A stretch of DNA of 64,000 nt, taken from assembly GCA_035699805.1 (NCBI GenBank), contig DASSPF010000147.1, positions 143 to 64,142 of the forward strand, read 5' to 3'. Both the position numbers and the translations under genes were made by a program. Positions 4,891-63,024 of the stretch are shown here, in pieces. Source of the DNA: Candidatus Limnocylindria bacterium (GTDB lineage: Bacteria > Chloroflexota > Limnocylindria > P2-11E). Numbering within the stretch: the first letter of the stretch is position 1; each line of letters begins with the position of its first letter. The notes beneath the pieces are model-generated. The model ran no database searches, had not been told where the DNA came from, and was given only the letters and a program-made list of their open reading frames with translations.

Positions 4891-5364
4891 ATGGCCGACT
4901 TCCGTCCTGTCGAGGCGACCAAGGCGCGCATCCTGACCATCCACGCGGCACCTCCGGGCGCCACCCCGGAGACGGCGAACGCCGAGTGGGTCGAGGTCGT
5001 GGTGCAGCTGGACTCCGACCTCGCGAACTGGCGCCTGCAGCGTCTGCGTGCGCTGTGGCGCGAGGAGCTCGCCAGACCGGTGGAGTGGGACTGGCTCTAC
5101 ACCTGGGGCTCGCCCGCGTTCGTGCGCGCCGGCGAGGTCTACCGCATCCACTCCGGCTCGCGCATCCGTGCGGCGACGCACCCGCTCACCGACGACCTCG
5201 CGCCGGGACGCAAGCACGTGTACCTCGCCGGGCCCGTGGCGAACGCCCGGCTGCTGTGGACCCGCGGCGACTACGTCCGGCTGGTGGATGCCTTCGGGAC
5301 GGTGATCGACGAGATCGTGGTCTGGCCGGCGGAGCCGGCAGCGCCGGAGCCGGCGAAGCGCTGA
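4891..5364 (+). CDS. Small lamin-tail-domain (LTD)-like protein, hypothetical.
   Basis: 'ARILTIHAAPPGATPETANAEWVEVV..DLANWRLQ..GEVYRIHSG..GDYVRLVDAFGTVIDEIVV' follows the LTD beta-sandwich consensus. The ATG at 4891 removes the antisense overlap with the aquaporin gene. Confidence 0.5.
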   Translation: MADFRPVEATKARILTIHAAPPGATPETANAEWVEVVVQLDSDLANWRLQRLRALWREELARPVEWDWLYTWGSPAFVRAGEVYRIHSGSRIRAATHPLTDDLAPGRKHVYLAGPVANARLLWTRGDYVRLVDAFGTVIDEIVVWPAEPAAPEPAKR

Positions 5365-5368
5365 CGAC

Positions 5369-6220
5369 CTAGCGGACCGACTTCGCGACCGCCGCTGCGG
5401 TGCGGTAGCGGCCCTTGCCCGCGCCCTTCGCCTCGCGCATGGCCGCATCGGCGTGCCGGAGGGTCTCCGCGAGACCGCTGCCATCACCGACGACGACGCC
5501 GACGCTCGCGCCCACCCTGATGAGGTGATCTCCCACGACGATCGGCTGGGTCATGAGCGCGACCAGTCGTGCGGCGATCTCCTCGGCACGTGGCGCACTC
5601 TCGACGTCGCGGAGCAGGACCGCGAAATCGTCGCCGCCCATTCTCGCGACGACATCCGAGGTCCCCACCGCGCGCTGGAGCCGGCGGGCCACCTCCACGA
5701 TGAGGGCATCGCCCACGGCGCGTCCGAAGGTGTCGTTCACGTCCCTGAAGTCGTCGAGGTCTAGGAAGAGCAGTGCGAACGGCACCCGCCTGCGCTGGAG
5801 CTCGGTGACCGCGATCGCGAGCCACTCCCGCAGCTGCGTGCGATCCGCGAGGCCGGTGAGCGCGTCGTGGCTGGCAAGGTGTGCGAGGCGATCCTCGCTG
5901 CGCTTGCGCTGACCGGCGATCGCGAAGACCGTGGCGATGATGAGGGTCATGAGGGGGATCTCGAGGAGCTCCTCCGGTTGGGTCGTGCCGGCCACGACCG
6001 CGTCGCCGACGGCGACGAGCACGGCGAACACCCCGATCGCCGAGCGTATGACGAATCCCCAGTACGCGCGGACAAATGCCTCGAGCGCGAGGACGACGAA
6101 CACGAGATGGAAGAAGATGACGGTGTGATCGCTCGCGATCGTGAGCACGACGGCGGCCACGAGCGCCGCGTCGAGGGCGATACGGCGAAGGTCGGTGCCG
6201 CGCGGCGCCAGGTCGCTCAC
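5369..6220 (-). CDS. Membrane-anchored GGDEF-domain protein (putative diguanylate cyclase) with a non-canonical GGDDF active-site motif.
   Basis: N-terminal transmembrane helices followed by 'LTGLADR...DLDDFRDVND..GRAVGDALI...RMGGDDFAVLL'. Its stop overlaps the upstream histidine-kinase gene by 4 nt. Confidence 0.8.
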   Translation of the reverse strand: MSDLAPRGTDLRRIALDAALVAAVVLTIASDHTVIFFHLVFVVLALEAFVRAYWGFVIRSAIGVFAVLVAVGDAVVAGTTQPEELLEIPLMTLIIATVFAIAGQRKRSEDRLAHLASHDALTGLADRTQLREWLAIAVTELQRRRVPFALLFLDLDDFRDVNDTFGRAVGDALIVEVARRLQRAVGTSDVVARMGGDDFAVLLRDVESAPRAEEIAARLVALMTQPIVVGDHLIRVGASVGVVVGDGSGLAETLRHADAAMREAKGAGKGRYRTAAAVAKSVR

Positions 6221-8616
6221 GGCCTGGCCGCCGGGAGCGTGAAGCTGATCGTCGCTCCATCACCGGGCGCGCCGGTCGCGTTCACGCGGCCGCCGTGCCG
6301 TTTCACGATCCGCTCGACCGTCGCGAGCCCGATGCCGGTCCCTTCGAAGCTGGCGTCGGTGTGCAGGCGCGTGAACGGCCGGAAGAGCCGATCGACGTAG
6401 CGCATGTCGAAGCCGACCCCGTTGTCGCGCACGAAATACGTTGCCACGCCGTCCACGGCCTCGCAGCCGATCTCGACGACCGGCTCCGAACGGGAGCGCG
6501 AGAACTTGAGCGCGTTCGTGACGAGGCTCTCGAGCAAGGTCCGGAGCAGCGCGCGATCGGCCCGGACGTACATCCCATCGGCGACGACGGCGCGGAACAC
6601 GGCGCCCGCTCGACGCTGCGCGTCGAGCACCTCCCGCGCCATCGCGCTGAGGTCGACGCGCTCCGGATCGAGCTCGGTGCGGCTGGCCATCGAGAGCGCG
6701 AGCAGGTCGTCGATGAGCGCCGACATACGCACCGTCGCGTCGTGGATGCGCGTGAGGTGCCGGTGGGCAGCCTCCGACCGGTGGTCGCCGAGCTCGGCCT
6801 CGAGGAGCGCCCGGAATCCGTCCAGCGCCCGGAGCGGCGCCCGCAGATCGTGCGAGACGGTGTGCGCGAACTCCTCGATGCCCTCGGTGGCCGTCGCGAG
6901 CTGGAAGGTGCGCTCACGAACACGTTCGTCGAGCCTCTCGTTCAGCTGTCGCAGCTCGCGCTGGGTCGTGGCGAGCCGGTCGGCGGTCTGGTTGAACGCA
7001 CGGTTCGCCGCGGCGATCTGATCCGCTCCGGCCGAGGTCGCGCGTGCGCCCAGATCGCCCGCGGCGAAGCGGAGCATCACGTCCACGAGGTCGTCGAGCG
7101 GTCGCGTCAGCGTCCGCGTGAACAGGACGGTGGCGGCGACGACGGCGAGCAGCAGCGCGAGCAACAGTGCAAGGCCGACCGAGATGCTGTTCACCGCGTA
7201 GGTGCCTGCAGCCTCCGGCCGCACCTCGAGCAGCGCGATGATCCCGCTGCCCGCCGCAGCCGCGTAGCCGCCGAGCATCACCAGGCCGGTGACGAACACA
7301 CCCGTCGTCGCCAGGACGCGGTCGCCGATACGACCGCGCACGATCGTCCCGGCCGCCATGCTCGTGACGGCGATCCCCAGCGCCCCGATCGCGATGGCGG
7401 CATGGCTGCGCAGACCGAAGATCCCGTAGGCCTGGGCGAGGGTTGGCTCCTCCACGAGGTACGCGAGCGCGTTCAGCGTCGCGACGACGGTCACGAGCGT
7501 GCTGAGCAGGAGCGCGGACAGGAGCGCATATCTGCTCCGCCGCCGCAGCAGGAGAGAGGCTCCGGTGACCGTCAGGAGCGCGCTCCCCGTGGGGGGCTGC
7601 GGACCGCCGGGCGCCAGACCGAGGCTGATGGTGGCGGCGAGGCCCACGCCGACGATCAGCGTGACCGTGTGGAGCGCTCGCAGGGATCGCCGCAACGACG
7701 CCCCTGCCACGATGCTGACGCCGACAAGGAGCATGGCCACTGACGAGAGGGCCGCGCTGCGCGCCGACCCATCGAGCCCCAACGCCCCGGACGGTCGGAG
7801 AAGGTCGCTCACCCCAACGAGCGAGGCCATGAGCACGCAGACGGCCGCAACGCTGGTCGGTCGGGGCGCGCTGGCGGTGCGCACCATCGAGATCGCGTGG
7901 GTCGTGTAGATGAGCAGCCCGGTCCAGGCGCGAGCCTCGAGCGCGCCCTGGAGCGCCGGGGTGAAGTTGATCGCCGCGGCGAGGCCGAGCGCGGCCGACG
8001 ACCGCGTGTGCCCGCGCGCCTCGGCGAACAGGAGCAGGGCGCCGACGGCCGTGTAGGAGAGGCCGACGATCCCCACCACGTGCGCGAGCTGCCCGTACGC
8101 CGCGACCGGGAAGCGCTCCGGGAAGAGCACCATGAGCGGTCCCGTCGCCACCTGGATGGCGCCGACGACCAGGACATGGCGGCGGCCGCCGAACGCGCGC
8201 CGGCCGCTCAGCGTCTCGACCGCGACGAGCGCGAGCATGAGGGCGAGGATGAGATTGGTGATGGCGCCGGTGAGGATCGAGACTCGCCAGAAGCCCGCGG
8301 CGAGCACGACGAGCGGTCCGCTCGCGAGCATGAGGAAGGCGCTCGTGACGGCGCGTCCAGTCACGCCGATCGCCGCGAGCAGGAGCAGCGAGCCGGTCGC
8401 CGCGAAGGCCAGTCCGTACCACGGGAGGAACGGCCGGATGCCGTCGTAGGCCACGCTCCTGAACTGGCCGGGCGCGCCGATCATCAGGAGGGCCATGCCG
8501 ACCTCGATGACGAGCGCCACCCACAGGAACGCCGGCTGGGTTGCACCTGCCGCATCGGTCCGCTCGCGCGCCACCGCCCGCGGAGCGGCGCGACGGGCCG
8601 CCGCGACGGCGGTCAC
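6217..8616 (-). CDS. Polytopic-membrane sensor histidine kinase: about 14 predicted TM helices, then HisKA and HATPase_c domains.
   Basis: 'HTVSHDLRAPLRALDGFRALL' is the H-box and 'RDNGVGFD...GTGIGLATVERIV' the G-boxes. The N-terminus is long and hydrophobic. It overlaps both neighbouring genes by 4 nt. Confidence 0.8.
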   Translation of the reverse strand: MTAVAAARRAAPRAVARERTDAAGATQPAFLWVALVIEVGMALLMIGAPGQFRSVAYDGIRPFLPWYGLAFAATGSLLLLAAIGVTGRAVTSAFLMLASGPLVVLAAGFWRVSILTGAITNLILALMLALVAVETLSGRRAFGGRRHVLVVGAIQVATGPLMVLFPERFPVAAYGQLAHVVGIVGLSYTAVGALLLFAEARGHTRSSAALGLAAAINFTPALQGALEARAWTGLLIYTTHAISMVRTASAPRPTSVAAVCVLMASLVGVSDLLRPSGALGLDGSARSAALSSVAMLLVGVSIVAGASLRRSLRALHTVTLIVGVGLAATISLGLAPGGPQPPTGSALLTVTGASLLLRRRSRYALLSALLLSTLVTVVATLNALAYLVEEPTLAQAYGIFGLRSHAAIAIGALGIAVTSMAAGTIVRGRIGDRVLATTGVFVTGLVMLGGYAAAAGSGIIALLEVRPEAAGTYAVNSISVGLALLLALLLAVVAATVLFTRTLTRPLDDLVDVMLRFAAGDLGARATSAGADQIAAANRAFNQTADRLATTQRELRQLNERLDERVRERTFQLATATEGIEEFAHTVSHDLRAPLRALDGFRALLEAELGDHRSEAAHRHLTRIHDATVRMSALIDDLLALSMASRTELDPERVDLSAMAREVLDAQRRAGAVFRAVVADGMYVRADRALLRTLLESLVTNALKFSRSRSEPVVEIGCEAVDGVATYFVRDNGVGFDMRYVDRLFRPFTRLHTDASFEGTGIGLATVERIVKRHGGRVNATGAPGDGATISFTLPAARP

Positions 8617-11027
8617 GATGCCGCGCCGGCGGCGGATGGAACGTCGAACAGGGCCCGAACGGCACCCACGAGCGCCTGCTCGGTGAACGGCTTGCGGACG
8701 CAGTCGGGGATCTCCGCGACATCCGCGAGCGGGCCAGCGGTGAACAGGGCACGCAGCTCCGGGCGCAGCCGCCGCAGCCTCGCGTGCAGCGCGGGTCCGC
8801 CGGCCTCCGCGATCCCCGCGTCGATGATCGCGGCGCCGATCCGTCGTTCGGACGAGGCCACCGCGAGCGCCTCGTTCGCGTCGGCGGCGAGGACCACCTC
8901 GAAGCCGTTGCGCTGCAGCAGCAGCTGCGCGGTCATGCGCACGATGTCCTGATCGTCGACCACCAGGATCGTCTGGCCGCTCGCCGCGGCATCGGTGGTC
9001 GGCGGATGCGCCGCGGCGGCAGCGAGCCAGCGCTCGAGCTCCGCCGGCGGCACCGGCGGGCTGAGGTGGTACCCCTGGGCCTGGTCGCAGCCGAGCGAGC
9101 GGAGCGCCATCAGGGTCCGCTCGTCTTCGACGCCTTCGGCAAGGACGCCGAGGCCCAGCGTATGTCCGAGGTCGATCGTCGCCCGCACGATCGCGGCGGC
9201 GGGCTCGTCGACGAACAATCCCTTCACGAACGAGCGGTCGATCTTGATCGTGTCGACAGGCAGCCGCGCGAGGTACGCCAGCGACGACTGTCCGGTCCCG
9301 AAGTCATCGATCGCGATCCGCACGCCGAGGGCACGCATCTGGGCCAGCACCTTTGCGGAGCGCTCGTGGTCGCTCATCACGACGCTTTCGGTGACCTCGA
9401 GCGTGAGCAGGCCCGGGTCCAGCCCGCTCCGGTCGAGCAGCCGTCGTACCTGGGAGGCGAGCTGCCCGTCGTAGAGATTGCGGACGGAGATGTTCACCGC
9501 GACCCCGATCGGCCGGCGCGTCTCCTGCCACCGCCAGCACTGCCGCAGCGCCTCGGCGAGGAGCCAGTCCGTCATCGGCTTGATGAGACCGCTCTGCTCG
9601 GCGATCGGGATGAACTCTCCCGGCGGCACGAGGCCGCGGCGCGGGCTTCGCCAGCGCATGAGGGCCTCGGCGTGCACGGCCTGGCGCCCCGCCAGGTTGA
9701 CGATCGGCTGGTAATGGAGGACGAGCTCGCTGTTCGCGACAGCCGTGCGGAGCTCCGAGAGGAGCGCGAGCCGGGTCGGCGCAGACCGGTCGAGCTCCGG
9801 CTCGTAGATCTGGCAGCTCTCCTGCGCGCGCTTCGCGGTACCAAGCGCGATGTCCGCGTGTCTGAGCAGCGTCTCCGCGCTCCGGCCGTGCTCTGGCGCG
9901 ATGGCGATGCCGACCGTGGTCGCAAGCCCGACCGGATGCTCGCCCACCAGGAACGCGGTCTCGAACAGGCGCTGCAAGCGCTCGCAGGCGTTCCGCGCCG
10001 CGCCGCGGTTCGTGGCCGGCCCGACCAGCGCGAATCGATGGCCCGCCGTGCGGCCGCAGAGCTCGCCCGGCGCGGCCATGTCGCGCAGACGAGCGGCGAT
10101 CTGGCGCAGGACATCGTCCCCCGCGGTGTGGCCGAAGACGTCGTTGACGTCGCCGAAGTCGTCGACGTCGAGCACGGCGACCGCGAGCGGGCCGGCCGGG
10201 CTCGCACCGAGGAGGCCGTCGATCTGGCGGGTGAGGTTCGCGAGGTTCGGGAGTCCGGTGAGCGCGTCGAAGTCGGCTTGCCGCGCGAGCGAGGCCTCGA
10301 GAAGACGCCGCTCGGTGACGTCGGTCGCCACGCCCACGATCTCGCGGGGCTCGCCGTCCTTATCGCGGATGAGCTGGGCGCTGGTGCTCATCCAGTGGTA
10401 CTGACCGCCGGCAGCGGCAAAACGCATGTCCCGATGTGCGGTCCCCGCGACCTGCAGCTCCGCGACGAAGTCACGAGCGGTCGCGGCGTCCTCCGGATGG
10501 ACGCGGTCCGGCAGCGCTGCGGCCGCGCCGGCGGGACCGCGCGACCCACTCATGAAGCTGACCCGCCCAGTGAGGTCACACGCGAACACCAGGCCGGGGA
10601 TCGCTCTGATGATGCCGTCGAGCCGCCGTTGCAGCGCCGCGCCGTCATCGAGGCGAGTGCGCAGGCGGCCGGTGATGATGGCGAGGAGGACGAGGACGAG
10701 CGAGGGAACGACATGCAGGGAGACGTCATGCGGCGCTCCGATGAGGTCAACGACGATCACGTTCCCGAGCGCGATCATCACCGCGACCCCTAGCCCAAAG
10801 CGCACCCCGAATCCCCATGCCGACACCGCCACCGGGAGGACGCTGCTGGCCAGGAAGATCTCGCCGATCGCCGGCAGAGCCAGCGGGATCCCGACGATGT
10901 AGCCCGCGAGCGCGCCCCCTACGGCGCCGGCCCGGCGGAGACGACGCATCAGTGCGAGACCCATCACCGATCGAGCCTCGGGCATGGCGGTCGGGCCGGG
11001 AAGACGCGGCTGCACCGGGCCCGCCAC
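8613..11027 (-). CDS. Membrane PAS - degenerate GGDEF - EAL - C-terminal REC protein (putative c-di-GMP phosphodiesterase under phospho-control).
   Basis: N-terminal TM helices. The GGDEF position reads 'GRTAGHRFALV', so it is degenerate. The EAL motif 'EALMRW', 'DDFGTG' and 'EGVE' are intact. The C-terminal receiver reads 'ILVVDDQDIV...IIDAGI...VRKPF'. Confidence 0.8.
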   Translation of the reverse strand: MAGPVQPRLPGPTAMPEARSVMGLALMRRLRRAGAVGGALAGYIVGIPLALPAIGEIFLASSVLPVAVSAWGFGVRFGLGVAVMIALGNVIVVDLIGAPHDVSLHVVPSLVLVLLAIITGRLRTRLDDGAALQRRLDGIIRAIPGLVFACDLTGRVSFMSGSRGPAGAAAALPDRVHPEDAATARDFVAELQVAGTAHRDMRFAAAGGQYHWMSTSAQLIRDKDGEPREIVGVATDVTERRLLEASLARQADFDALTGLPNLANLTRQIDGLLGASPAGPLAVAVLDVDDFGDVNDVFGHTAGDDVLRQIAARLRDMAAPGELCGRTAGHRFALVGPATNRGAARNACERLQRLFETAFLVGEHPVGLATTVGIAIAPEHGRSAETLLRHADIALGTAKRAQESCQIYEPELDRSAPTRLALLSELRTAVANSELVLHYQPIVNLAGRQAVHAEALMRWRSPRRGLVPPGEFIPIAEQSGLIKPMTDWLLAEALRQCWRWQETRRPIGVAVNISVRNLYDGQLASQVRRLLDRSGLDPGLLTLEVTESVVMSDHERSAKVLAQMRALGVRIAIDDFGTGQSSLAYLARLPVDTIKIDRSFVKGLFVDEPAAAIVRATIDLGHTLGLGVLAEGVEDERTLMALRSLGCDQAQGYHLSPPVPPAELERWLAAAAAHPPTTDAAASGQTILVVDDQDIVRMTAQLLLQRNGFEVVLAADANEALAVASSERRIGAAIIDAGIAEAGGPALHARLRRLRPELRALFTAGPLADVAEIPDCVRKPFTEQALVGAVRALFDVPSAAGAAS

Positions 11028-11717
11028 CTACACCTGCGGGTGGCCGACGGAAGGTCTGCGCACGAGGCCGAGGGCATAGGCCCGGAGCACGGCCTCCAGG
11101 CGTGAGTGGGTCTCGAGCTTCTCGATGATCATCTGCACGTGGCCGCGGACGGTGTTCACGGCCATCCCGGTCGCTTCCGCGATGGCCCGGGTGTCCAATC
11201 CCTGGCTCATGTGCTGGAGCACCTCGCGGTCCCGCGGCGTCAGTGCCGTAGCGAAGCGCTCGCGCTGGCGCCGCTCCGCCTCGCGGTCGCGCTGATGCTT
11301 CACCAGGCGCGCCAGGTCCTCCGCCGGGATCACGATCTCCCCGCGTGCGGCCCGCTCGAGAAGCCCCACGATCCTGCCGGTCGGCTCGCGCTTGGAGATG
11401 AAGCCCGCGACGCCCACCTCGAGCGCGGCGAGGAGGGTCTCGTCCGAGGCGTCGGCGGTGAACAGCACGACCGCGACGGAGCGCCCACTGTCGCGCAGCA
11501 GACGCGCGGCGTCGGTCCCGGCCCCGTCGGGGAGGTGCTGGTCCAGGAGCACGAGCTCGGCATCGCGCTCGCGCGCGAGCGCGACCGCTTCGGCGACGGT
11601 CCCCGCCGCGCCGACCACCGTGAGCGCGGTGCTGCGCGAGAGCAGCGCGACGAGCGCCTCGACCAGGAGCGGGTGATCGTCGACGATGAGCGTGCGTGCG
11701 GGTCGTGGATCGGTCAT
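11028..11717 (-). CDS. NarL/FixJ (LuxR)-family response regulator.
   Basis: REC domain 'LIVDDHPLLVE..LDQHLPDG' plus a LuxR helix-turn-helix 'LTPRDREVLQHMSQG...IAEATGMAVNTVRGH'. The start ATG at 11717 ('MTDPRP') was chosen over the 388-aa Arg-rich ORF extension. Confidence 0.8.
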   Translation of the reverse strand: MTDPRPARTLIVDDHPLLVEALVALLSRSTALTVVGAAGTVAEAVALARERDAELVLLDQHLPDGAGTDAARLLRDSGRSVAVVLFTADASDETLLAALEVGVAGFISKREPTGRIVGLLERAARGEIVIPAEDLARLVKHQRDREAERRQRERFATALTPRDREVLQHMSQGLDTRAIAEATGMAVNTVRGHVQMIIEKLETHSRLEAVLRAYALGLVRRPSVGHPQV

Positions 11718-12154
11718 GCGGGGCGCTCGTTGAGCAGCAGCCAGTAGGCACCCAGCTCGCTCACCGCCGCGACGAAACGCTCGAACTCGACCGGCTTGCG
11801 CACGTAGCTGTTCGCGCCGAGGTCGTAGCCGCGCAGCATGTCGCGCTCCTCGCTCGAGGACGTGAGGAGCACCACGGGGACCAGGCGGGTGCGCTCGTCG
11901 GCCCGGAGGCGCCGCAGCACCTCGAGACCGTCGACCTTCGGGAGCTTGATGTCGAGCAGAACGACGGCCGGGAGGTCGCGCGCGTCCCGGGCGGCGTGGG
12001 CGCCCGTCGCGAACAGGTAGTCGAGCGCCTCGGCGCCGTCGCGCGCGACGACCATCTCGTTGGCGAACCGGTGCCGGCCGAGGACGAGGAGCGTCAGCTC
12101 GAGGTCGTTGGGGTCGTCTTCGACGATCAGGATCGCACCCTTGCGCGCGTTCAT
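11714..12154 (-). CDS. Stand-alone CheY-like receiver-domain protein.
   Basis: 'ILIVEDDPNDLELT...VLLDIKLPKVDG...YVRKP', with no output domain. Its stop overlaps the downstream LuxR gene start in an ATGA. Confidence 0.8.
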   Translation of the reverse strand: MNARKGAILIVEDDPNDLELTLLVLGRHRFANEMVVARDGAEALDYLFATGAHAARDARDLPAVVLLDIKLPKVDGLEVLRRLRADERTRLVPVVLLTSSSEERDMLRGYDLGANSYVRKPVEFERFVAAVSELGAYWLLLNERPA

Positions 12155-12283
12155 GACCCACCCTCATCCGGGGACCGCTCGCTGTGCGGCTCACCCACCG
12201 TGCAAGGCTCGACCACGAGGGCTGGCGGCGCGATGGTCGTTCGTCACTTCCGGCATCCCCCCTTTGCAGGATGCTGTGCGTGA

Positions 12284-12925
12284 TCAGTCGAGCAGGCCCG
12301 CCGCCCGGGCGTGCGCCACGGCCTGGAGCTTGGAGTGCGCGTCGAGCTTCTCCAGGATGCTCTGGACGTGATGACGGACCGTGTTCACGCCGATGTCCAG
12401 GGTGTTCGCGATGGTCTTGTTGTCATCCCCGCGCGCGACGAGCCTCAGGACTTCCATCTCGCGGGCGGTCAGGGGAGGCGGTCCCACCTCCGGGTCGGGC
12501 CGCTCGATGAGCCGCAGCAGGCGGGAGAGCGTGTCCGCGGCGAAGAGCGTCTCGCCAGCGGCGGCGCGCCGGACCGCGTCGGCGATCACCGTGGCGGTGG
12601 CCGTCTTCACGATGTAGCCGGCCGCACCGGCCGACACCGCGGCAAGGAGCGCGTCATCGCTCGTGTCAGCGGAGAGCATGACGACGGCGATCCCCGGCCG
12701 GAGACCGCGGATCGCCTGCGCGGCGTCGGCGCCCGTACCGTCCGGCAGATGGTGATCCATGACCACCACATCGACCGCGTCCGCTTCGACGAAGCCGCGC
12801 GCATCTGCCACCGTCCGCACGGTCCCCACGACGGCCAGCCCGTCCTGCCGCTCGAGTGCGAGCTGCAGGCCCTCGGCCAGCACCTCGTGATCATCGACGA
12901 TGAGGACGCGGATCAGGTCGCTCAC
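12284..12925 (-). CDS. NarL/FixJ (LuxR)-family response regulator.
   Basis: 'VLIVDDHEVLAEGL...VVMDHHLPDGTG' REC plus a C-terminal LuxR helix-turn-helix 'LTAREMEVLRLVARGDDNKTIANTLDIGVNTVRHH'. Overlaps the upstream PAS kinase gene by 4 nt. Confidence 0.85.
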   Translation of the reverse strand: MSDLIRVLIVDDHEVLAEGLQLALERQDGLAVVGTVRTVADARGFVEADAVDVVVMDHHLPDGTGADAAQAIRGLRPGIAVVMLSADTSDDALLAAVSAGAAGYIVKTATATVIADAVRRAAAGETLFAADTLSRLLRLIERPDPEVGPPPLTAREMEVLRLVARGDDNKTIANTLDIGVNTVRHHVQSILEKLDAHSKLQAVAHARAAGLLD

Positions 12926-14871
12926 GCCGCGAGCGGGACCGTGATGCGGAACGTCGCACCCCTGCCCGGGCCGGGACTCTCGCCGGTGATCGCGCCGGCC
13001 TGCGCCTCCACGAGGAGGCGCGCCAGGTACAGTCCGAGGCCGATACCGGCCGCCGCGCGACGCCCCGGCGCGGTCCGCTCGTACTTGCGAAAGAGTCGGC
13101 CGGCGTCATCGGCCGTGAAACCGACGCCCTCGTCAGCGACCTCGATGACGCCCACGTCCGCGCCTCGGCGCACGGTGACCATCACGCTGCTCGTGGGTGC
13201 TGAGTACTTGAGCGCGTTCGACAAGAGGTTGTCGAGGGCACGCCCCATGTCCCGTGGATCGATGTGCGCCACGAGCGGCGTCGGCCCGGCGTCGATCGCG
13301 ATCCTTGCCACATCCGATCGACCGACCGCGTCGGTCACGATGCTCCGCAGGTCGAGCGCGCGCCGCTCGGTGTGACGCCCGCCACCCTCGAGCTGCCCGA
13401 TGGCCAGCAGATCCTCGGCGAGCGTGGCGAGGGCCTCCGCCTGCGCGCGGAGCGCGATGGCGGCCCGGCGATCCCGCTGGCCGAGGGCCGGCGAGCGGCT
13501 CAGGCCATCGGCGAGCATGCTCATCGCCGCGATGGGTGAGCGCACCTCGTGCGCGAGCAGGACCAGCGCTTCGTCGCGCCGCTCGGCGAGACGACGCTCT
13601 TGCTGTAGCAGGGCGTCGCGTCTGCGCTCGAACTCGGAGATGTCGTGGAAGAAGGCGATGACCTGGATCGTCCCGTCGGGCTCCACGCGCGGCGTGTAAC
13701 CGACCGAGATGGCCACGGTGTGGCCGGCCTTGTGGCGCCAGTGTGTCTCGTCACGGGCGCTGTGGCCTGACATGACCCGCGCGATCACCGTCTTCAGCCT
13801 GGGGTCGCCCGGGTCGACGCTCAGCAGGTCGGTGTGCTGGCCGATGATCTCCCCTTCGGTGTAGCCGAGGATGCGCTCTGCCGCGGCGTTCCAGCCGGTG
13901 ATGACGCGCTCGGATGTCAGGATCATGCCCTCGCTCGTGCTCGCGACCACCTCGCTCATGACCGCGGCGCGGGCCGCGAGCGCGCGCTCTGCCTCGAGGC
14001 GTCGACGGTCGGTCGTATCGGTGACGAAGATCGCGACGCCCTCGGCCGACGGGTAGGCGCGCCACTCCACGCTCCGCATGTCGTCCGCGTCCTCGCGGAC
14101 GGTGGCCACGCCCCGTTGGATGGCCGCGCGCACCAGACCGACGGGCACCACCGGGAGACCGGCGAGCGATCGCCCGACGAAGTCCTCCCGGCTCTTACCG
14201 GTGATCTCGAGCGCGCGGCGGTTCACGAACGCGCAGGTGCCGTCGCTGCGCAGCGCGATGAAGCCGTCGTTCACGTGATCGAGCAGCTCCTCGTACAGGG
14301 TGCGGCGGTCGGTCCGGCGGCGCTCCTCGGCCGCGCCCCGCTCCGCGGCCCGCTGCTCGGTGCGGTCGACCCCGACGGCGACCGCCCCTCCCGTGGCTGG
14401 ATCAGGGACGATGACCATGTCCAGCGCGCGACCGCGGAATTCGAGGGCAATGTGCTCGACCGCGCCCGCGAGCGCGCGCCGCGCCGCATCAGCGGTCCCC
14501 GGCAGGGTGGGCCGCTCCAGGACGGACTGCCCGATGCGGCTGCTCGAACGGATCCCGATCGTTTCCAGGGCCGAGCCGCGCAGGGACGTGATGACGCCTC
14601 TCTTGTCGATGCGAGAGACGAACACCGGGAGGATGCGGAGGATCTCCTCGAGCTCTCGGCCGCGCTCCGCGGTGGCGGTGATGGCCCGGAAGTGATACCG
14701 CGCGATGAGCAGGACGACCAAGCCGACGATGTACGTGCCGACGATGAGCGCAATAGCGTTGGACTCGAGCGCGAGAGCCAATGCGATCACGGGCGCGGTG
14801 AAGACCACCGCAAGGAGTGCGACCGAGAGGGCCTCCCCGGGTCGCAGGTGGCGTCGCAGCCATGGACGCAT
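12922..14871 (-). CDS. Multi-PAS sensor histidine kinase, membrane-anchored.
   Basis: Two N-terminal TM helices, several PAS-like segments, the H-box 'LLAHEVRSPIAAM', and the HATPase 'NLLSNALKYS...DEGVGF..GIGLGLYLA'. Confidence 0.8.
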   Translation of the reverse strand: MRPWLRRHLRPGEALSVALLAVVFTAPVIALALALESNAIALIVGTYIVGLVVLLIARYHFRAITATAERGRELEEILRILPVFVSRIDKRGVITSLRGSALETIGIRSSSRIGQSVLERPTLPGTADAARRALAGAVEHIALEFRGRALDMVIVPDPATGGAVAVGVDRTEQRAAERGAAEERRRTDRRTLYEELLDHVNDGFIALRSDGTCAFVNRRALEITGKSREDFVGRSLAGLPVVPVGLVRAAIQRGVATVREDADDMRSVEWRAYPSAEGVAIFVTDTTDRRRLEAERALAARAAVMSEVVASTSEGMILTSERVITGWNAAAERILGYTEGEIIGQHTDLLSVDPGDPRLKTVIARVMSGHSARDETHWRHKAGHTVAISVGYTPRVEPDGTIQVIAFFHDISEFERRRDALLQQERRLAERRDEALVLLAHEVRSPIAAMSMLADGLSRSPALGQRDRRAAIALRAQAEALATLAEDLLAIGQLEGGGRHTERRALDLRSIVTDAVGRSDVARIAIDAGPTPLVAHIDPRDMGRALDNLLSNALKYSAPTSSVMVTVRRGADVGVIEVADEGVGFTADDAGRLFRKYERTAPGRRAAAGIGLGLYLARLLVEAQAGAITGESPGPGRGATFRITVPLAA

Positions 14872-14940
14872 GTCCCACCCCGATCGCGCCAGCGGCCTCG
14901 ATTATCGTCCACGCATCCACGCCAAGGGGGATACGCCGGA

Positions 14941-17502: not shown

Positions 17503-19058
<1,556 letters not shown>

Positions 19059-19062
<4 letters not shown>

Positions 19063-20057
19063 GAGATCGCCTCCACGCGGTACGCGTCCACCGGCGTCCG
19101 CCGTCCCTTGAGCTCGAGCGAGCCGAGCGGAGTCGCGGCGACGCCGGGACCGGCAGCCGTGAGCGCGGCGCTGGAACAGATCACCTCGCCCGCCTTGGCC
19201 TGCGACTGGAGGCGTGCCGCGACGTTCACCGTGTCGCCGATGGCGGTGAAGTTCTGGTACTCGTCGCTTCCCAGATTCCCGACCATCGCCTCGCCGGTGT
19301 GCACGCCCACACCGTACCCCAGCTCGGTTCCCGCGCCCTGCGCCGCATCCCGCATCGCGAGCGCGCCCACCAGGGCCAGCCGCGCGTGATCGGGCTGCTC
19401 GGCGGGCGCGTTCCAGAGCGCCAGGATGGCGTCGCCGGCGAAGCGGTCGATGGTCCCACCGTGGCCGCGGATCGCCTTTGCCGCCGCCCCGTGATAGCGG
19501 AGCAGCAGGCTCACCACGCGGTCCGGCGGAAGCGCCTCGGCCATCGTGGTGTAGCCGCGCACGTCGGCGTGCAGCACGCTCACGGTCTGGGTGCGGCCTC
19601 CGACGTCCACGAAGGAGGGCCGTGCGTCGACCATCTCCGCCACGTTCTCGCCGAGGTAGCGGCGGAGCGCATCGCGAAGCCGCCCCTGATCCTCTTCGAG
19701 CTTCTCCAGCTTGGGTGACGAGGTGTCCTCGTCCGCGACGAACACCACGCCGGTGACCGCACCGCGGCCGTCGCGCAGCGGGCCGGCCGTCGCGCGGAGC
19801 TTCGCGCGCCGTCCGTCGGGCAGCGTCGCCTCGATGGTCCGGACGTCATTCCGCGTGCCGCGCAGGACCAGCGAGAAGACCCGCGACGAGAGCGAGGGTC
19901 CGAAGACCTCGGTGTACGGCTTCCCGACCGCGTCCGCCTCGGTGGTGGAGAGCAGCCGCAGCGCGTTGCGGTTGAGCGAGCGGATCCGCCCTTCCGTGTC
20001 CATGAGCACCACGCTCGATGGGTTGAACTGCAAGAGCGCGAAGCTCATGCCCTGCAC
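19059..20057 (-). CDS. PAS-domain class III adenylate/guanylate cyclase.
   Basis: N-terminal PAS, then 'VLHADVRGYTTMAE...FAGDAILALW..VGVHTGEAMVGNLGS'. It shares a 4-nt overlap with the downstream kinase gene. Confidence 0.8.
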
Positions 20058-57959: not shown

Positions 57960-60900
57960 TCACCACTCCTCGGCGAGCTTCTGGAGGTACTGGCGATCGC
58001 CGAGCGCGGCGAGGCGCCGATCGGCATCCGCGCGGTCGTTCTCGTCCCGGGTGCGCAGCGCCAGCAGGGTCGCCGCACGTGCGGCGTCCGCGACGAGATG
58101 CCCCGCATCGAGCGACGCGATCGCCCGCCGCACGTCCGCGTCACCGGCGTTCAGCGCCCGCGCGAGCTCGACGCGCAGGCGCAAGACCGGCGGCATCTCG
58201 CTGTTGCGCCGCTCGACCGTCCGCAGCTCTTCCTCCATGAGCTGCTCGCCGAGGTCGAAGAGCAACAGTGCGATCAGCTCGCCCTTGCGGTCGGCGCCGC
58301 CGCCGATCTGGCTGGTGACGGCGGCCCGCGCGGCGGCGGCGTCCCGGTCGATGAACGCGACCCAGAAGGGCCGCGAGTCAGCGGCGAGCAGCGGCACGTT
58401 GGCGATGTTCACGAACGCGCTCCGGTAGCGCGCCAGGCGGGTGGTGTCACCGCGGGCCGCCGCGACGCGAAGGGCCGCGACCCAGCCGGGGTACATGAAG
58501 CGGCCGGCGTTCAGCCGCGATTCCTCGAGCATCGTGACCATGAGGTCGCCCAGGACGAAGACCTCGTCCCAGCGCCCGCAGAGCATCGCGGCGTACGTCG
58601 CCCAGGCCGCGGAGTGGGCGGTCATGTACACCGGCTCGCTCGCGCGCAGACTGCGCCGGGCGTCGCGATACGTGTCCGTGGCCTCGTCGTGGCGGCCGAG
58701 GTAGACCAGGTCCCAGATCGCGACGCTCCACGCATCGATCCGCTCGAGCAGGCTGAGGCGGTCGACCTTGGCGAGCCGCTCGCGTGTGTAGGCCAGGGCC
58801 CGCTCCGGATCGCCGAACGCGGTGCGCTCGAGCGAGGCGAGCGCATCCAGGGCCTCGCTCTCCGCCTCGATGTCGCCGCGCTCGGCGTACAGCGTGCGGG
58901 ACCGCTCGACCTCGCCCGCGAGCTCACGGAGCTCGCCGCGCTCGGACTCCGGAGCGCGCATGACGTGGAAGGCCCGTGCGAACGCGAGCTTCGCCTCGAC
59001 GAGCGGGTCGGGGCCGCGGTCGAGCAGCCGCCGTGCCTCCGCCGCGAGCGTCGCGAACTCCGCGGGCTCCATGGGCTTGCTGATCGAGCCCGCCCAGCGC
59101 GCGGCCACCCCGAGCTGCTTGACGATGAGCCGGGCACCGGTCCGCGGATCGCCGTCGGCCTGCGCGCGCCAGCGCGCGACGGCCTCCGCGTACCCCGTGA
59201 TGGCCTCGTCTCCGAACTGCATGAGATCGCCGACGAGCTCGTGCTGGCGGAGATGCTCGCTCGGCGGCGAGAGGCGCATCGCCTCGCGCATCTGCTCGGC
59301 GGCCTCGCGAAAGGCGCCGACGTTCGCGGCGGCGCGGGCGGCCCGCTCCAGCGCCGCGGCGACCGCGTCCACGGCGAGGCCGTCGGGCACGCGGTTCCCC
59401 GGCGACAGCGCGATCGCCTGCCGGTAGTGGTACGCGATGAGCTCGGTGAATTCCTGGCCCGCGCCGCTCTGCTCCTCGAGCCAGTGGGCGAGGCGGATGT
59501 GCGCGCGGACGCGCTCGGCGCGCGGGAGCGTCGCATAGGCGACCTCGCGGATGACGATGTGCCGGAACGTGTAGGCACCGCCGCCCTGCGCCACCAGAAG
59601 GTCGCGGTCGGCGAGCGCGTCGAAGGCATCGGCGATCGTCGTCTCCGGCAGCTCCGCGAGCAGCGCGCCCACCGCCGCGACGCGCGCGGTCCGGCCCGCG
59701 ACCGCGGCGTACTCGAGCACCGACCGCTCCGGCGGCGGCAGCGCGTCGATGCGCGAGAGCACCGTGGCGTGCACGGTGTCCGGCAGGGTGATCTCCTCAT
59801 CGCGCTTCCCGGCGCGATGCAGCTCCTCGTACGCGCGCACCAGCTCGCCGACGAAGAACGGGTTCCCGCCGGCGCGCTCGACGATCGCGTTCGCGATCGG
59901 ACCAGGGACGCTCTCGGTCATGATCGAGACCAGGCGGAGGGTCTCCTCGCTGGTGAGCGGCTCGAGCCCGATGGACGTGAAGTTGCGCCGGCCACCACCC
60001 CAGGTGGGCCGGCGGTCCAGCAGCTCCGGCCGGGCGAGCGCGAACATGACGAGCGGCGCGGTGGTCCGGCTGGTGGTCACGTGCTCCACCAGGTCCAGCA
60101 GCGTGTCCGACGCCCAGTGCAGGTCCTCGAACACCACGAGCAGCGGTCCCCGCAGGGCAAGCGCCTCGATGAGCAGGCGCCAGGCGCTGAAGATCTCCTC
60201 GCGATCGCGGCGCTCGGAGTCGGGCGTGTCGCCCAGGGTCGTCCCGATGAGGAGCGCCAGGCGGCCGGCCTCCTCGGCGCCGTGGCCGGCGGATACGAAG
60301 ACGTCGCGCAGCAGCGGTGCGGCGTCCTCGGTGCGGGTGATCCCGAGAAGACCGCGGACGAGCCCGCGGAGGGGGAGGAACGTCACCGCGGCGCCGTAGG
60401 GCAGGCACTGGGCGGTCGCGACGATCACCCGCTCGTCGGCAAGGCGCGTGGCGAACTCCTCCACCAGGCGCGACTTGCCCGTGCCCGCGGGGGCGGTGAT
60501 CGTGACCAGCTGCGGGCGCCGCTCGCCGAACGCCCGCTGCGCGACGAGGTCGAGCTGCGCCAGGTCGTGCTCGCGGCCGAGGAACGGCGCGCGCGCGACC
60601 CGGCGCTCGGCGAGGCGCTCGAGGAGGATCGACCCGCCGATCGGCTCGCGCTTGCCCTTCACCGCGATCTGCTGCTCGTCGGCGAAGCGGAAGGTCGAGA
60701 CGGCGCGGCGGGTGCGCTCGCCCACCAGGATCCCGCCGGGCTCGGCGTGCTGCTGCAGCCGCGCGGCGACGTTCACCGCGTCACCCGTGACGAGGAAATC
60801 CCCGGCCGCGCTCTCGCGCGCGGCGACCACCTCGCCGGTGTTCACGCCCATGCGCAGGGCGAGCGCCGCCGTCTGCGGATCCTTCGCGACCGCCTCCCGG

Positions 60901-61202
60901 AGCGCGAGGGCGGCGGCGAGCGCGCGCTCCGCGTCGTCGCCGTGCGCCTGCGGGATGCCGAACACGGCCATGACCGAATCACCGATGAACTTCTCGAGCG
61001 TGCCACCGTGCGCGGCGATGACCTCGCGCGCGATGCCGTAGTAGCGGCCGAGGAGCGCGCGGACGTCCTCCGGGTCGCTCGACTCGCCCATCGCGGTCGA
61101 ACCGGTGACGTCCGCGAACAGGATCGTGACGACGCGGCGCTCCTCTGGCACTGCGCGATTCTCGCGGCCTGCGGTCCCGTACGCCAGCCCGCCCCTGCCC
61201 AT
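57960..61202 (-). CDS. Class III adenylate/guanylate cyclase domain - AAA/NB-ARC-like ATPase - TPR/helical C-terminal domain protein (STAND-like signalling ATPase).
   Basis: '[14 protein letters not shown]...[11 protein letters not shown]' cyclase, then Walker A '[13 protein letters not shown]', and a long helical C-terminus with no LuxR helix-turn-helix. The chosen start, M42 of the ORF at 61202, gives a 13-nt gap to the divergent lepA start at 61216; the upstream in-frame Mets would overlap it. Confidence 0.7.
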
Positions 61203-61215
61203 ACGCTTGAGGTCT

Positions 61216-63020
<1,805 letters not shown>

Positions 63021-63024
<4 letters not shown>

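Follow-up and report, generated by a model that had tools for sequence, protein, structure and literature searches.

Do the seven signalling genes that follow one another on the minus strand of the DNA described here form a single operon and phosphorelay, or more than one regulatory unit? The genes lie between positions 14871 and 5369 of a 64,000-nucleotide stretch of the 64,168-bp contig DASSPF010000147.1 (the window), which comes from the metagenome-assembled genome (MAG) of an uncultured soil or freshwater bacterium, Candidatus Limnocylindria (Chloroflexota). In minus-strand order they are HK1, RR1, REC, RR2, G5, HK2 and G7: two sensor histidine kinases (HK1 and HK2), two NarL/LuxR-type response regulators (RR1 and RR2), a stand-alone receiver (REC), a predicted cyclic di-GMP (c-di-GMP) phosphodiesterase (G5) and an atypical GGDEF protein (G7). 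A first, sequence-only reading took them for one translationally coupled operon specifying a stoichiometrically coupled phosphorelay. We consider it rather probable, although far from certain, that the block comprises two neighbouring units, namely an HK1-RR1 pair (14871–12284) and a branched system made up of REC, RR2, G5, HK2 and G7 (12154–5369). The grounds for this are a 129-nt gap between RR1 and REC, motifs resembling Shine-Dalgarno (SD) sites before HK1 and REC, and the rarity of HK1, RR1 and RR2 relatives beside REC homologues in other loci. No published work on signalling in Limnocylindria was found.

The block itself is well founded. All seven open reading frames (ORFs) have a coding-type GC content at third codon positions (GC3, 0.88–0.95), their domains are recognized by Pfam, and the NCBI annotation lists the same seven proteins (HET7700945 to HET7700939) with identical starts except for G5. 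Independent short contigs from four public sequencing runs match 15013–11788 and 8305–5301 at 99.9–100%, so that neither the gene order nor the junctions are an artefact of assembly. Contig look-ups with RR1 and G7 returned near-identical short contigs only, which support the assembly and are silent on conservation, while exact-sequence look-ups with REC and HK2 gave no match. Outside the block, signalling accounts for 5 of the approximately 43 genes of the window, and a run of seven is far beyond chance at such a frequency. The gene run, the gap and the approximately 14 hydrophobic segments of HK2 all stand as first described, and Pfam bears out the domain calls; the plain label “GGDEF” for G7 is imprecise, its motif being GGDDF with, in addition, an Asn to Asp replacement. 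At the equivalog level NCBIfam makes no assignment for any of the seven proteins.

Table 1. Coordinates of the seven genes and of the parts of the block discussed in the text
Feature	Position	Strand	Description
HK1	12922..14871	-	649 aa, HET7700945.1; membrane-anchored sensor histidine kinase; Pfam PAS (two to three), HisKA, HATPase
RR1	12284..12925	-	213 aa; NarL/LuxR-type response regulator, Pfam REC-GerE; GTG start overlaps HK1 stop
RR1-REC intergenic gap	12155..12283	-	129 nt; likely border between two expression units
REC	11714..12154	-	146 aa; Pfam single REC; stand-alone receiver
RR2	11028..11717	-	229 aa; second NarL/LuxR-type response regulator, REC-GerE; ATG overlaps REC stop
G5	8613..11027	-	Four transmembrane (TM) segments, PAS, degenerate GGDEF, EAL, C-terminal REC (Pfam); start ambiguous: 11027 earliest, NCBI 10964 (783 aa)
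G5 C-terminal receiver	8613-8990	-	Residues ~680-804, after EAL; shortened and divergent, phospho-acceptor residues all kept
HK2	6217..8616	-	799 aa; ~14 TM, HAMP, HisKA, HATPase (Pfam, hydropathy); GTG overlaps G5 stop
HK2 sensor region	7117..8616	-	Residues 1-500; rare membrane-domain family
G7	5369..6220	-	4-TM and GGDEF domain (Pfam); GTG overlaps HK2 stop

The junctions are less uniform than was first thought. Every one but one had been said to overlap by exactly 4 nt; four of the six do so, namely HK1/RR1 (GTGA), REC/RR2 (ATGA), G5/HK2 (GTGA) and HK2/G7 (GTGA). Besides the gap, the exception is RR2/G5, where the stop TAG is followed directly by GTG, leaving 0 nt at the earliest G5 start and 63 nt at the NCBI start (Met22, 10964). 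An overlap is impossible at this position because the G5 frame opens only at the base after the RR2 stop. By the same longest-ORF rule, 7 of the 25 same-strand junctions of the window outside the block also overlap by 4 nt, so that such overlaps are a habit of this genome and not distinctive of the block. Nor are they proof of equal amounts of protein, as the claim of stoichiometric coupling supposed: ompR and envZ overlap by ATGA, yet OmpR far exceeds EnvZ, and an overlap does not fix protein ratios.

A G-rich, SD-like motif (GGGTGGG, then A or T, then C) is situated directly before the ATG codons of two genes, HK1, which is preceded by GGGGTGGGAC, and REC, which is preceded by GAGGGTGGGTC. 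The sole other SD candidate in the block is a weak and badly spaced GAGG, 13 nt before Met22 of G5. The 129-nt gap yielded neither a sigma-70-like promoter nor a terminator consensus; its RNA fold is not significant (z = 0.61) and it matches no Rfam family. Two repeats were noted. Just after the RR1 stop (12244–12283) there is an imperfect 15-nt inverted repeat with the perfect core GCATCC-10 nt-GGATGC, and the 69-nt region upstream of HK1 contains two tandem copies of the 7-nt direct repeat TCCACGC (spacing 8; 14908–14922). Both are possible regulator sites or chance matches.

The neighbours of related genes were examined in a REC-anchored metagenome scan which returned 460 relatives, the best 80 loci of which (L091–L170, 56–67% identity) were taken for neighbourhood counts. 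Upstream sequence was sufficient in 55 loci, and in 41 of these a same-strand kinase core of the HK2 type (35–58% identical) ends no more than 300 nt before the REC homologue. Directly downstream a GGDEF(-EAL) gene was present in 8 of the 39 loci with enough sequence on that side. All eight of these products, as well as a ninth, GGDEF-only protein in L121, have their own N-terminal receiver, and the c-di-GMP genes of the related loci are mostly canonical GGDEF or SGDEF. The kinases beside the REC homologues that were examined also carry dCache, HAMP, PAS and GAF sensors. By tblastn, relatives of the HK1 PAS region occur in 2 of the 80 loci, RR1-like regulators in none and RR2-like regulators in one.

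Two of these loci, L165 (9980–16507) and L146, share the order found in the window: REC, REC-GAF-GAF-GGDEF-EAL, dCache kinase and GAF-EAL. The EAL domain there shares 56% identity with that of G5 and the kinase 47% with the HK2 core, and a GerE-PAS regulator, divergent in sequence, is situated upstream. A Betaproteobacteria MAG (L056; 3880–11683) has a tight same-strand chain of a kinase, an Rcp-like REC (56.5% identical), a REC-PAS-HisKA_3 kinase, a LuxR regulator and a PAS-GGDEF-EAL protein. The window differs from its relatives in its permuted order, in the C-terminal position of the G5 receiver, in the degeneracy of the G5 GGDEF domain and in the sensor of its kinase, and it adds a LuxR regulator and a separate TM-GGDDF gene. 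These recurrent neighbourhoods support a predicted functional link of REC with HK2 and the EAL protein. The combination of a kinase, a receiver of the Rcp type and a receiver-bearing GGDEF-EAL protein could explain many Rcp-like receivers which are not associated with phytochromes. Long same-strand chains of kinase and receiver genes were also seen in L099, L154 and L159, and L093 is a further example of the neighbourhood of kinase, Rcp-type REC and REC-(PAS/GAF)-GGDEF-EAL.

None of the seven proteins contains an Hpt family (Pfam, E <= 0.01) and neither kinase carries a receiver, so that neither is hybrid. Contrary to the original suggestion the block is therefore no phosphorelay, but at most a case of one kinase serving several receivers. 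All four receivers (RR1, REC, RR2 and that of G5) keep the DD, D, T/S and K residues on alignment with CheY, the T/S position being Ser in RR1 and Thr in the G5 receiver. The H, N, G1, F and G2 boxes of both kinases are complete, those of HK1 reading LAHEVRSP (H-box), NLLSNALKY, DEGVGF, LFRKYER and GIGLGL, and those of HK2 VSHDLRAPL, SLVTNALKF, DNGVGF, LFRPFTR and GTGIGL. The proposed outputs, transcription and c-di-GMP turnover, are supported by two REC-GerE regulators and by the conserved EAL domain of G5.

In the first unit, a classical two-component pair, HK1 would be anchored by its 2-TM hairpin, would sense through its cytoplasmic PAS domains (three PAS-like regions are discernible) and would phosphorylate RR1, which would then act on DNA. 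RR1 has no alternative start upstream of strand beta-1 of its REC domain. The arrangement, a PAS-containing HisKA kinase coupled to a LuxR/GerE-type regulator, recalls FixL/FixJ-type pairs, and weak NCBIfam FixL and FixJ hits were obtained; the scores are far below the equivalog cut-offs (76 versus 850 bits for FixL, 45 versus 255 bits for FixJ). The apparent likeness is an analogy and not membership.

In the second unit HK2 would sense in or at the membrane via its ~14-TM domain and HAMP linker, autophosphorylate on His589 and pass the phosphate to REC, a pairing supported by the recurrent neighbourhood. It would probably also phosphorylate the C-terminal receiver of G5 and RR2, the outputs being hydrolysis of c-di-GMP by G5 and transcription via RR2. 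REC might then act as a modulator, that is, as a phosphate sink, a competitor or a REC-REC adaptor, while G7 may supply or sense nucleotide, either as a weak cyclase or one of altered specificity, or as a dead partner. Inferred in this scheme are the routes of the phosphate, what phosphorylation does to G5, how REC functions, whether G7 is active, which signals are perceived and how the genes are transcribed.

REC belongs to the Rcp or bacteriophytochrome response regulator (BRR) family. In a PDB sequence search it matched, over residues 7–145, 5ic5 [1.2e-47] and 5brj [1.9e-47], which we take to be RtBRR and AtBRR, and it also matched RcpB [4.5e-24], RcpA [2.1e-21] and Rcp1 [5e-18]. Its single REC domain and its C-terminal extension (YW..LNE.P) are those of the family. 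In this it resembles the receivers of the Cph1-Rcp1 and Ramlibacter RtBphP1-RtBRR-RtBHK systems. The Ramlibacter genes specify a bacteriophytochrome kinase, RtBRR and then a receiver-bearing kinase (PMC6848086), and the same logic is seen in L056, L165 and the window. The phytochrome pairs differ from the block in several respects: by Pfam neither HK1 nor HK2 has a GAF or PHY domain, HK2 possessing ~14 TM segments and HAMP in place of PAS-GAF-PHY; the receiver-bearing protein encoded downstream is a predicted c-di-GMP phosphodiesterase; and REC and its presumed kinase gene are not neighbours. In Caulobacter the two kinases PleC and DivJ act with the single-domain receiver DivK and with PleD, which is encoded adjacently, and DivK modulates the kinases. 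That system differs in that PleD is a cyclase (REC-REC-GGDEF), in that there is no LuxR regulator and in that the kinases are encoded elsewhere; furthermore, REC resembles DivK with E = 1.4e-9, against ~1e-47 for 5ic5 and 5brj, and is of the Rcp/BRR and not of the DivK family.

G5 is a predicted c-di-GMP phosphodiesterase with an intact EAL domain (Pfam score 255.9 bits). It is identical at 58 of the 61 columns conserved in at least 90% of 120 homologues, and the catalytic and metal-binding residues are kept: EALxR, E454, R458, N512, E544, E547, D574 and D575 (DDFGTG), K595, E631 and E634 (EGVE) and Q651. The GGDEF domain is degenerate (RTAGHRF, that is, AGHRF), with the guanine-contact Asn retained, and is probably regulatory; CC3396/PdeA likewise pairs an altered motif (GEDEF) with EAL (PMC8835794), as G5 pairs a degenerate GGDEF with an active-looking EAL. 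The receiver scores 38 bits and has no BLAST-level similarity to any other receiver tested. Its position after EAL is found in 1 of the 120 nearest homologues (P0149). The best relatives are no more than 48% identical, over the GGDEF-EAL part only, and in a G5-anchored genome scan all 80 loci were at most 45% identical over GGDEF-EAL, the C-terminal receiver being covered in none. The nearest relatives which do contain a receiver (P0133 and P0073) have it at the N-terminus, among unrelated neighbours.

The sensor region of HK2 proved more difficult to place. Neither it nor four distant relatives gave a Pfam family at E <= 5, HK2 has no NCBIfam sensor-domain hit, and profiles of described membrane sensor domains (MASE, MHYT, 7TMR-DISM and similar) did not match. 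When 1.84 billion representatives were searched exhaustively with HMMER, only 27 relatives scored E < 1e-3, the best of them 2.5e-10. They share the first ~220 residues (~7 TM) or the whole ~14-TM region, the ~7-TM half standing alone in many, and beyond HAMP or Cache(-HAMP) they lead into a kinase, adenylate cyclase or GGDEF-EAL output. Fusion to such varied outputs is the distribution expected of a portable sensor module, and from the relatives' architecture this looks like an undescribed portable sensor domain. The alignment (A1) contains the conserved motifs APxxFxGPAYxxIRP, RxWTGVxSY, LNLLAY and RGPVGxRVF; when used in a profile search it recovered only HK2 itself and one other protein (P0007).

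An AlphaFold2 (AF2) model of the HK2 sensor built from five sequences is all-helical with a mean pLDDT of 60.8, being confident in the first half only and below 50 in the second. In a Foldseek comparison of this model with the PDB no hit reached E < 0.1 or TM-score > 0.25. The even number of TM segments fits a cytoplasmic N-terminus together with a cytoplasmic HAMP domain. We also looked for an internal 7 + 7 TM duplication, with a negative result (best E = 0.046).

G7 departs from active diguanylate cyclases at two positions. Its motif is RMGGDDF (GGDDF at residues 195–199), where 117 of 120 related domains have Glu, and in LTGLADR the Asp at residue 126 replaces the guanine-contact Asn, which is invariant in all 120. 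It also lacks an RxxD I-site. For activity [G/A/S]G[D/E]E[F/Y] is the accepted motif (PMC8835794), and G7 has neither this motif nor the Asn. There is about an even chance that G7 is not a diguanylate cyclase at all but a catalytically dead protein that either binds nucleotide as a receptor or acts on G5 or HK2 as their membrane partner or regulator. Both substitutions point in this direction, as does PA3258, a GGDDF protein reported to be inactive (PMC8835794); yet alignment to solved GGDEF domains shows the remainder of the domain to be well conserved, including the DxD that binds metal, the Arg preceding the motif and the Lys at the C-terminal end. Moreover, GSU1937 of Geobacter, which like G7 has an N-terminal TM region, is the first and only GGDDF enzyme reported to be active (PMC8835794), and for this reason G7 may be active.

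The comparison with GSU1937 has its limits, homology having been shown for the domain only. GSU1937 belongs to the Hypr GGDEF proteins and carries their diagnostic Ser348, whereas G7, by alignment, has Glu at the corresponding position as well as the Asn to Asp change. Assignment of G7 to the Hypr (cGAMP-type) proteins was considered and is not supported because of this Glu, as placed by alignment to canonical domains. As a natural GGDDF, Asn-to-Asp variant G7 could be used to probe the limits of cyclase chemistry.

The block had also been called unusual. Two-component genes are classed as orphan, paired or complex, the bacterial mean being 14% complex (Whitworth, PMC4603909), and “intricate” foci, with at least two receivers and at least two transmitters, average 0.3 per genome and number 8–9 in Myxococcus (PMC4603909). 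The block is an intricate focus and, within a category already known, belongs to the upper end. Of the 28 REC-anchored metagenomic loci that span 10 kb or more, 8 have at least five signalling-domain hits on the same strand inside 9.5 kb, 5 have at least six and 2 have seven. The operon itself adds little, complex two-component loci which control transcription and c-di-GMP being well documented. The useful by-products are the recurrent REC neighbourhood, the HK2 sensor family and the G7 variant, all of them in an uncultured class of Chloroflexota.

In Pseudomonas, branched systems that feed an EAL regulator as well as GerE regulators are already established (PMC12051241). The Roc (SadARS) system of P. 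aeruginosa, which consists of RocS1/RocS2, the REC-GerE proteins RocA1/RocA2 and the REC-EAL protein RocR, shares with the block two kinases, GerE regulators, a receiver-bearing EAL phosphodiesterase and control over both transcription and c-di-GMP (PMC12051241). The Roc kinases, on the other hand, are unorthodox (HisKA-REC-Hpt) with periplasmic SBP_bac_3 sensors, while those of the block are plain HisKA enzymes and have no Hpt domain. RocR has an N-terminal REC and no GGDEF, in contrast to the TM-PAS-GGDEF-EAL-REC arrangement of G5 with its degenerate GGDEF, and the Roc genes are dispersed over several loci with neither an Rcp-type stand-alone REC nor a GGDEF gene. The block is Roc-like in its output logic only; kinases of the Roc type are absent from it.

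In Xanthomonas RavS/RavR and Legionella Lpl0330/Lpl0329 a kinase phosphorylates a receiver-bearing c-di-GMP enzyme. In the HnoK/HnoB/HnoC/HnoD system of Shewanella (PMC6335343) a transcription factor and a modulator receiver are further targets of the kinase. Compared by layout only, these three systems differ from the block in the N-terminal position of the receiver and in having no Rcp-type REC, 14-TM sensor or GGDDF partner.

How might the seven genes be wired, if not as two units? One alternative is a single translationally coupled operon forming one integrated network, in which both kinases feed the four receivers in fixed stoichiometry; we regard this as unlikely. All seven genes lie on one strand with no terminator-like site in the gap, yet the gap is there, REC has its own SD-like site, and RR2 and G5 do not overlap. 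The four overlapping junctions would suit such coupling but are of a kind that is generic in the contig and that leaves protein ratios free. RR1 and RR2 are paralogues (43% identity), making cross-talk conceivable, and in Roc several regulators of the GerE and EAL kinds are indeed common to two kinases (PMC12051241). The block, for its part, has neither Hpt domain nor hybrid kinase, and relatives of HK1, RR1 and RR2 are hardly ever found beside REC homologues, which points to two units rather than to the single operon originally proposed.

The opposite alternative is a loose collection in which HK1-RR1 and HK2-REC are the only true partners, and RR2, G5 and G7 are wired independently and have been brought together by operon accretion. 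RR2 would then be served by a HisKA_3 kinase encoded elsewhere, the receiver of G5 would be a pseudo-receiver and G7 an autonomous membrane sensor. NarL-type regulators do normally pair with HisKA_3 kinases, as in L056, and there is none in the block; the window is moreover rich in signalling genes (12 of ~50), the G5 receiver is highly divergent, and REC homologues do not regularly have a LuxR regulator or a TM-GGDEF gene beside them. Receiver-bearing GGDEF-EAL genes, in contrast, do recur beside these homologues, always with a receiver of their own, and L165 and L146 repeat the series of REC, phosphodiesterase, kinase and second c-di-GMP gene. Since the start of RR2 also overlaps the stop of REC, and that of G7 the stop of HK2, we hold independent wiring to be improbable.

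Several observations weigh against the two-unit reading as well. With no promoter or terminator consensus in the gap all seven genes could be one transcript. The kinase for RR2 may lie elsewhere, given that the block has no HisKA_3 kinase, and the divergent receiver of G5 may be a pseudo-receiver. A LuxR-type regulator is rare beside REC homologues (1 of the 80 loci), and in related loci the kinase is mostly directly upstream of REC, whereas HK2 is three genes downstream. As to conservation of the whole block, which the sequence-only reading had proposed as a check, the neighbourhood of REC, kinase and c-di-GMP genes recurs and two loci share the order of the window, but among GTDB representatives and JGI metagenomes we found no orthologue of the block as a whole. 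Pattern scans of the same two collections with the HK2 sensor returned no relatives.

A bolder view of the second unit, which we think quite improbable, is that it is a variant of a widespread module in which a receiver of the Rcp/BRR family is the obligatory go-between of a kinase and a c-di-GMP enzyme with a receiver of its own. It might act by forming REC-REC “arm-in-arm” heterodimers, for instance, and not by mere competition for phosphate. In the window this module would be driven by an undescribed family of 14-TM sensors and paired with a GGDDF, Asn-to-Asp protein of altered chemistry or specificity. The idea of an “arm-in-arm” dimer for the BRR family is cited in PMC6848086.

The GC content of the window is ~71% and is flat (0.70–0.73) across and around the block, which gives no support to horizontal acquisition. 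Upstream, on the same strand and 69 nt before HK1, lies a gene for an enzyme of the o-succinylbenzoate-synthase family; downstream there is a convergent gene. Position 5301, 68 nt beyond the G7 stop, is the exact end of three of the four independent G7-bearing contigs (from three runs), which suggests a branch of the assembly graph there, due to strain variation or to a repeat. Rfam recognized no riboswitch or other RNA family within the window.

The other signalling genes of the window comprise an OmpR-type pair, a PAS-adenylate cyclase/Ser-Thr kinase pair and an adenylate cyclase-AAA_16 protein. The second of these, a further coupled signalling pair, is on the minus strand ~2.6 kb upstream of the block (17503–20057), where the gene for a PAS-adenylate/guanylate cyclase (332 aa) and that for a Ser/Thr protein kinase with a C-terminal PPC domain (519 aa) share 4 nt. 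The third (57960–61325, minus strand) specifies a 1121-aa protein in which an N-terminal adenylate/guanylate cyclase domain precedes a STAND-type ATPase (AAA_16). If the longest ORFs are taken, this gene and lepA (61105–63024, plus strand) overlap by ~220 nt, so that one of the two genes probably starts later than its longest ORF would have it.

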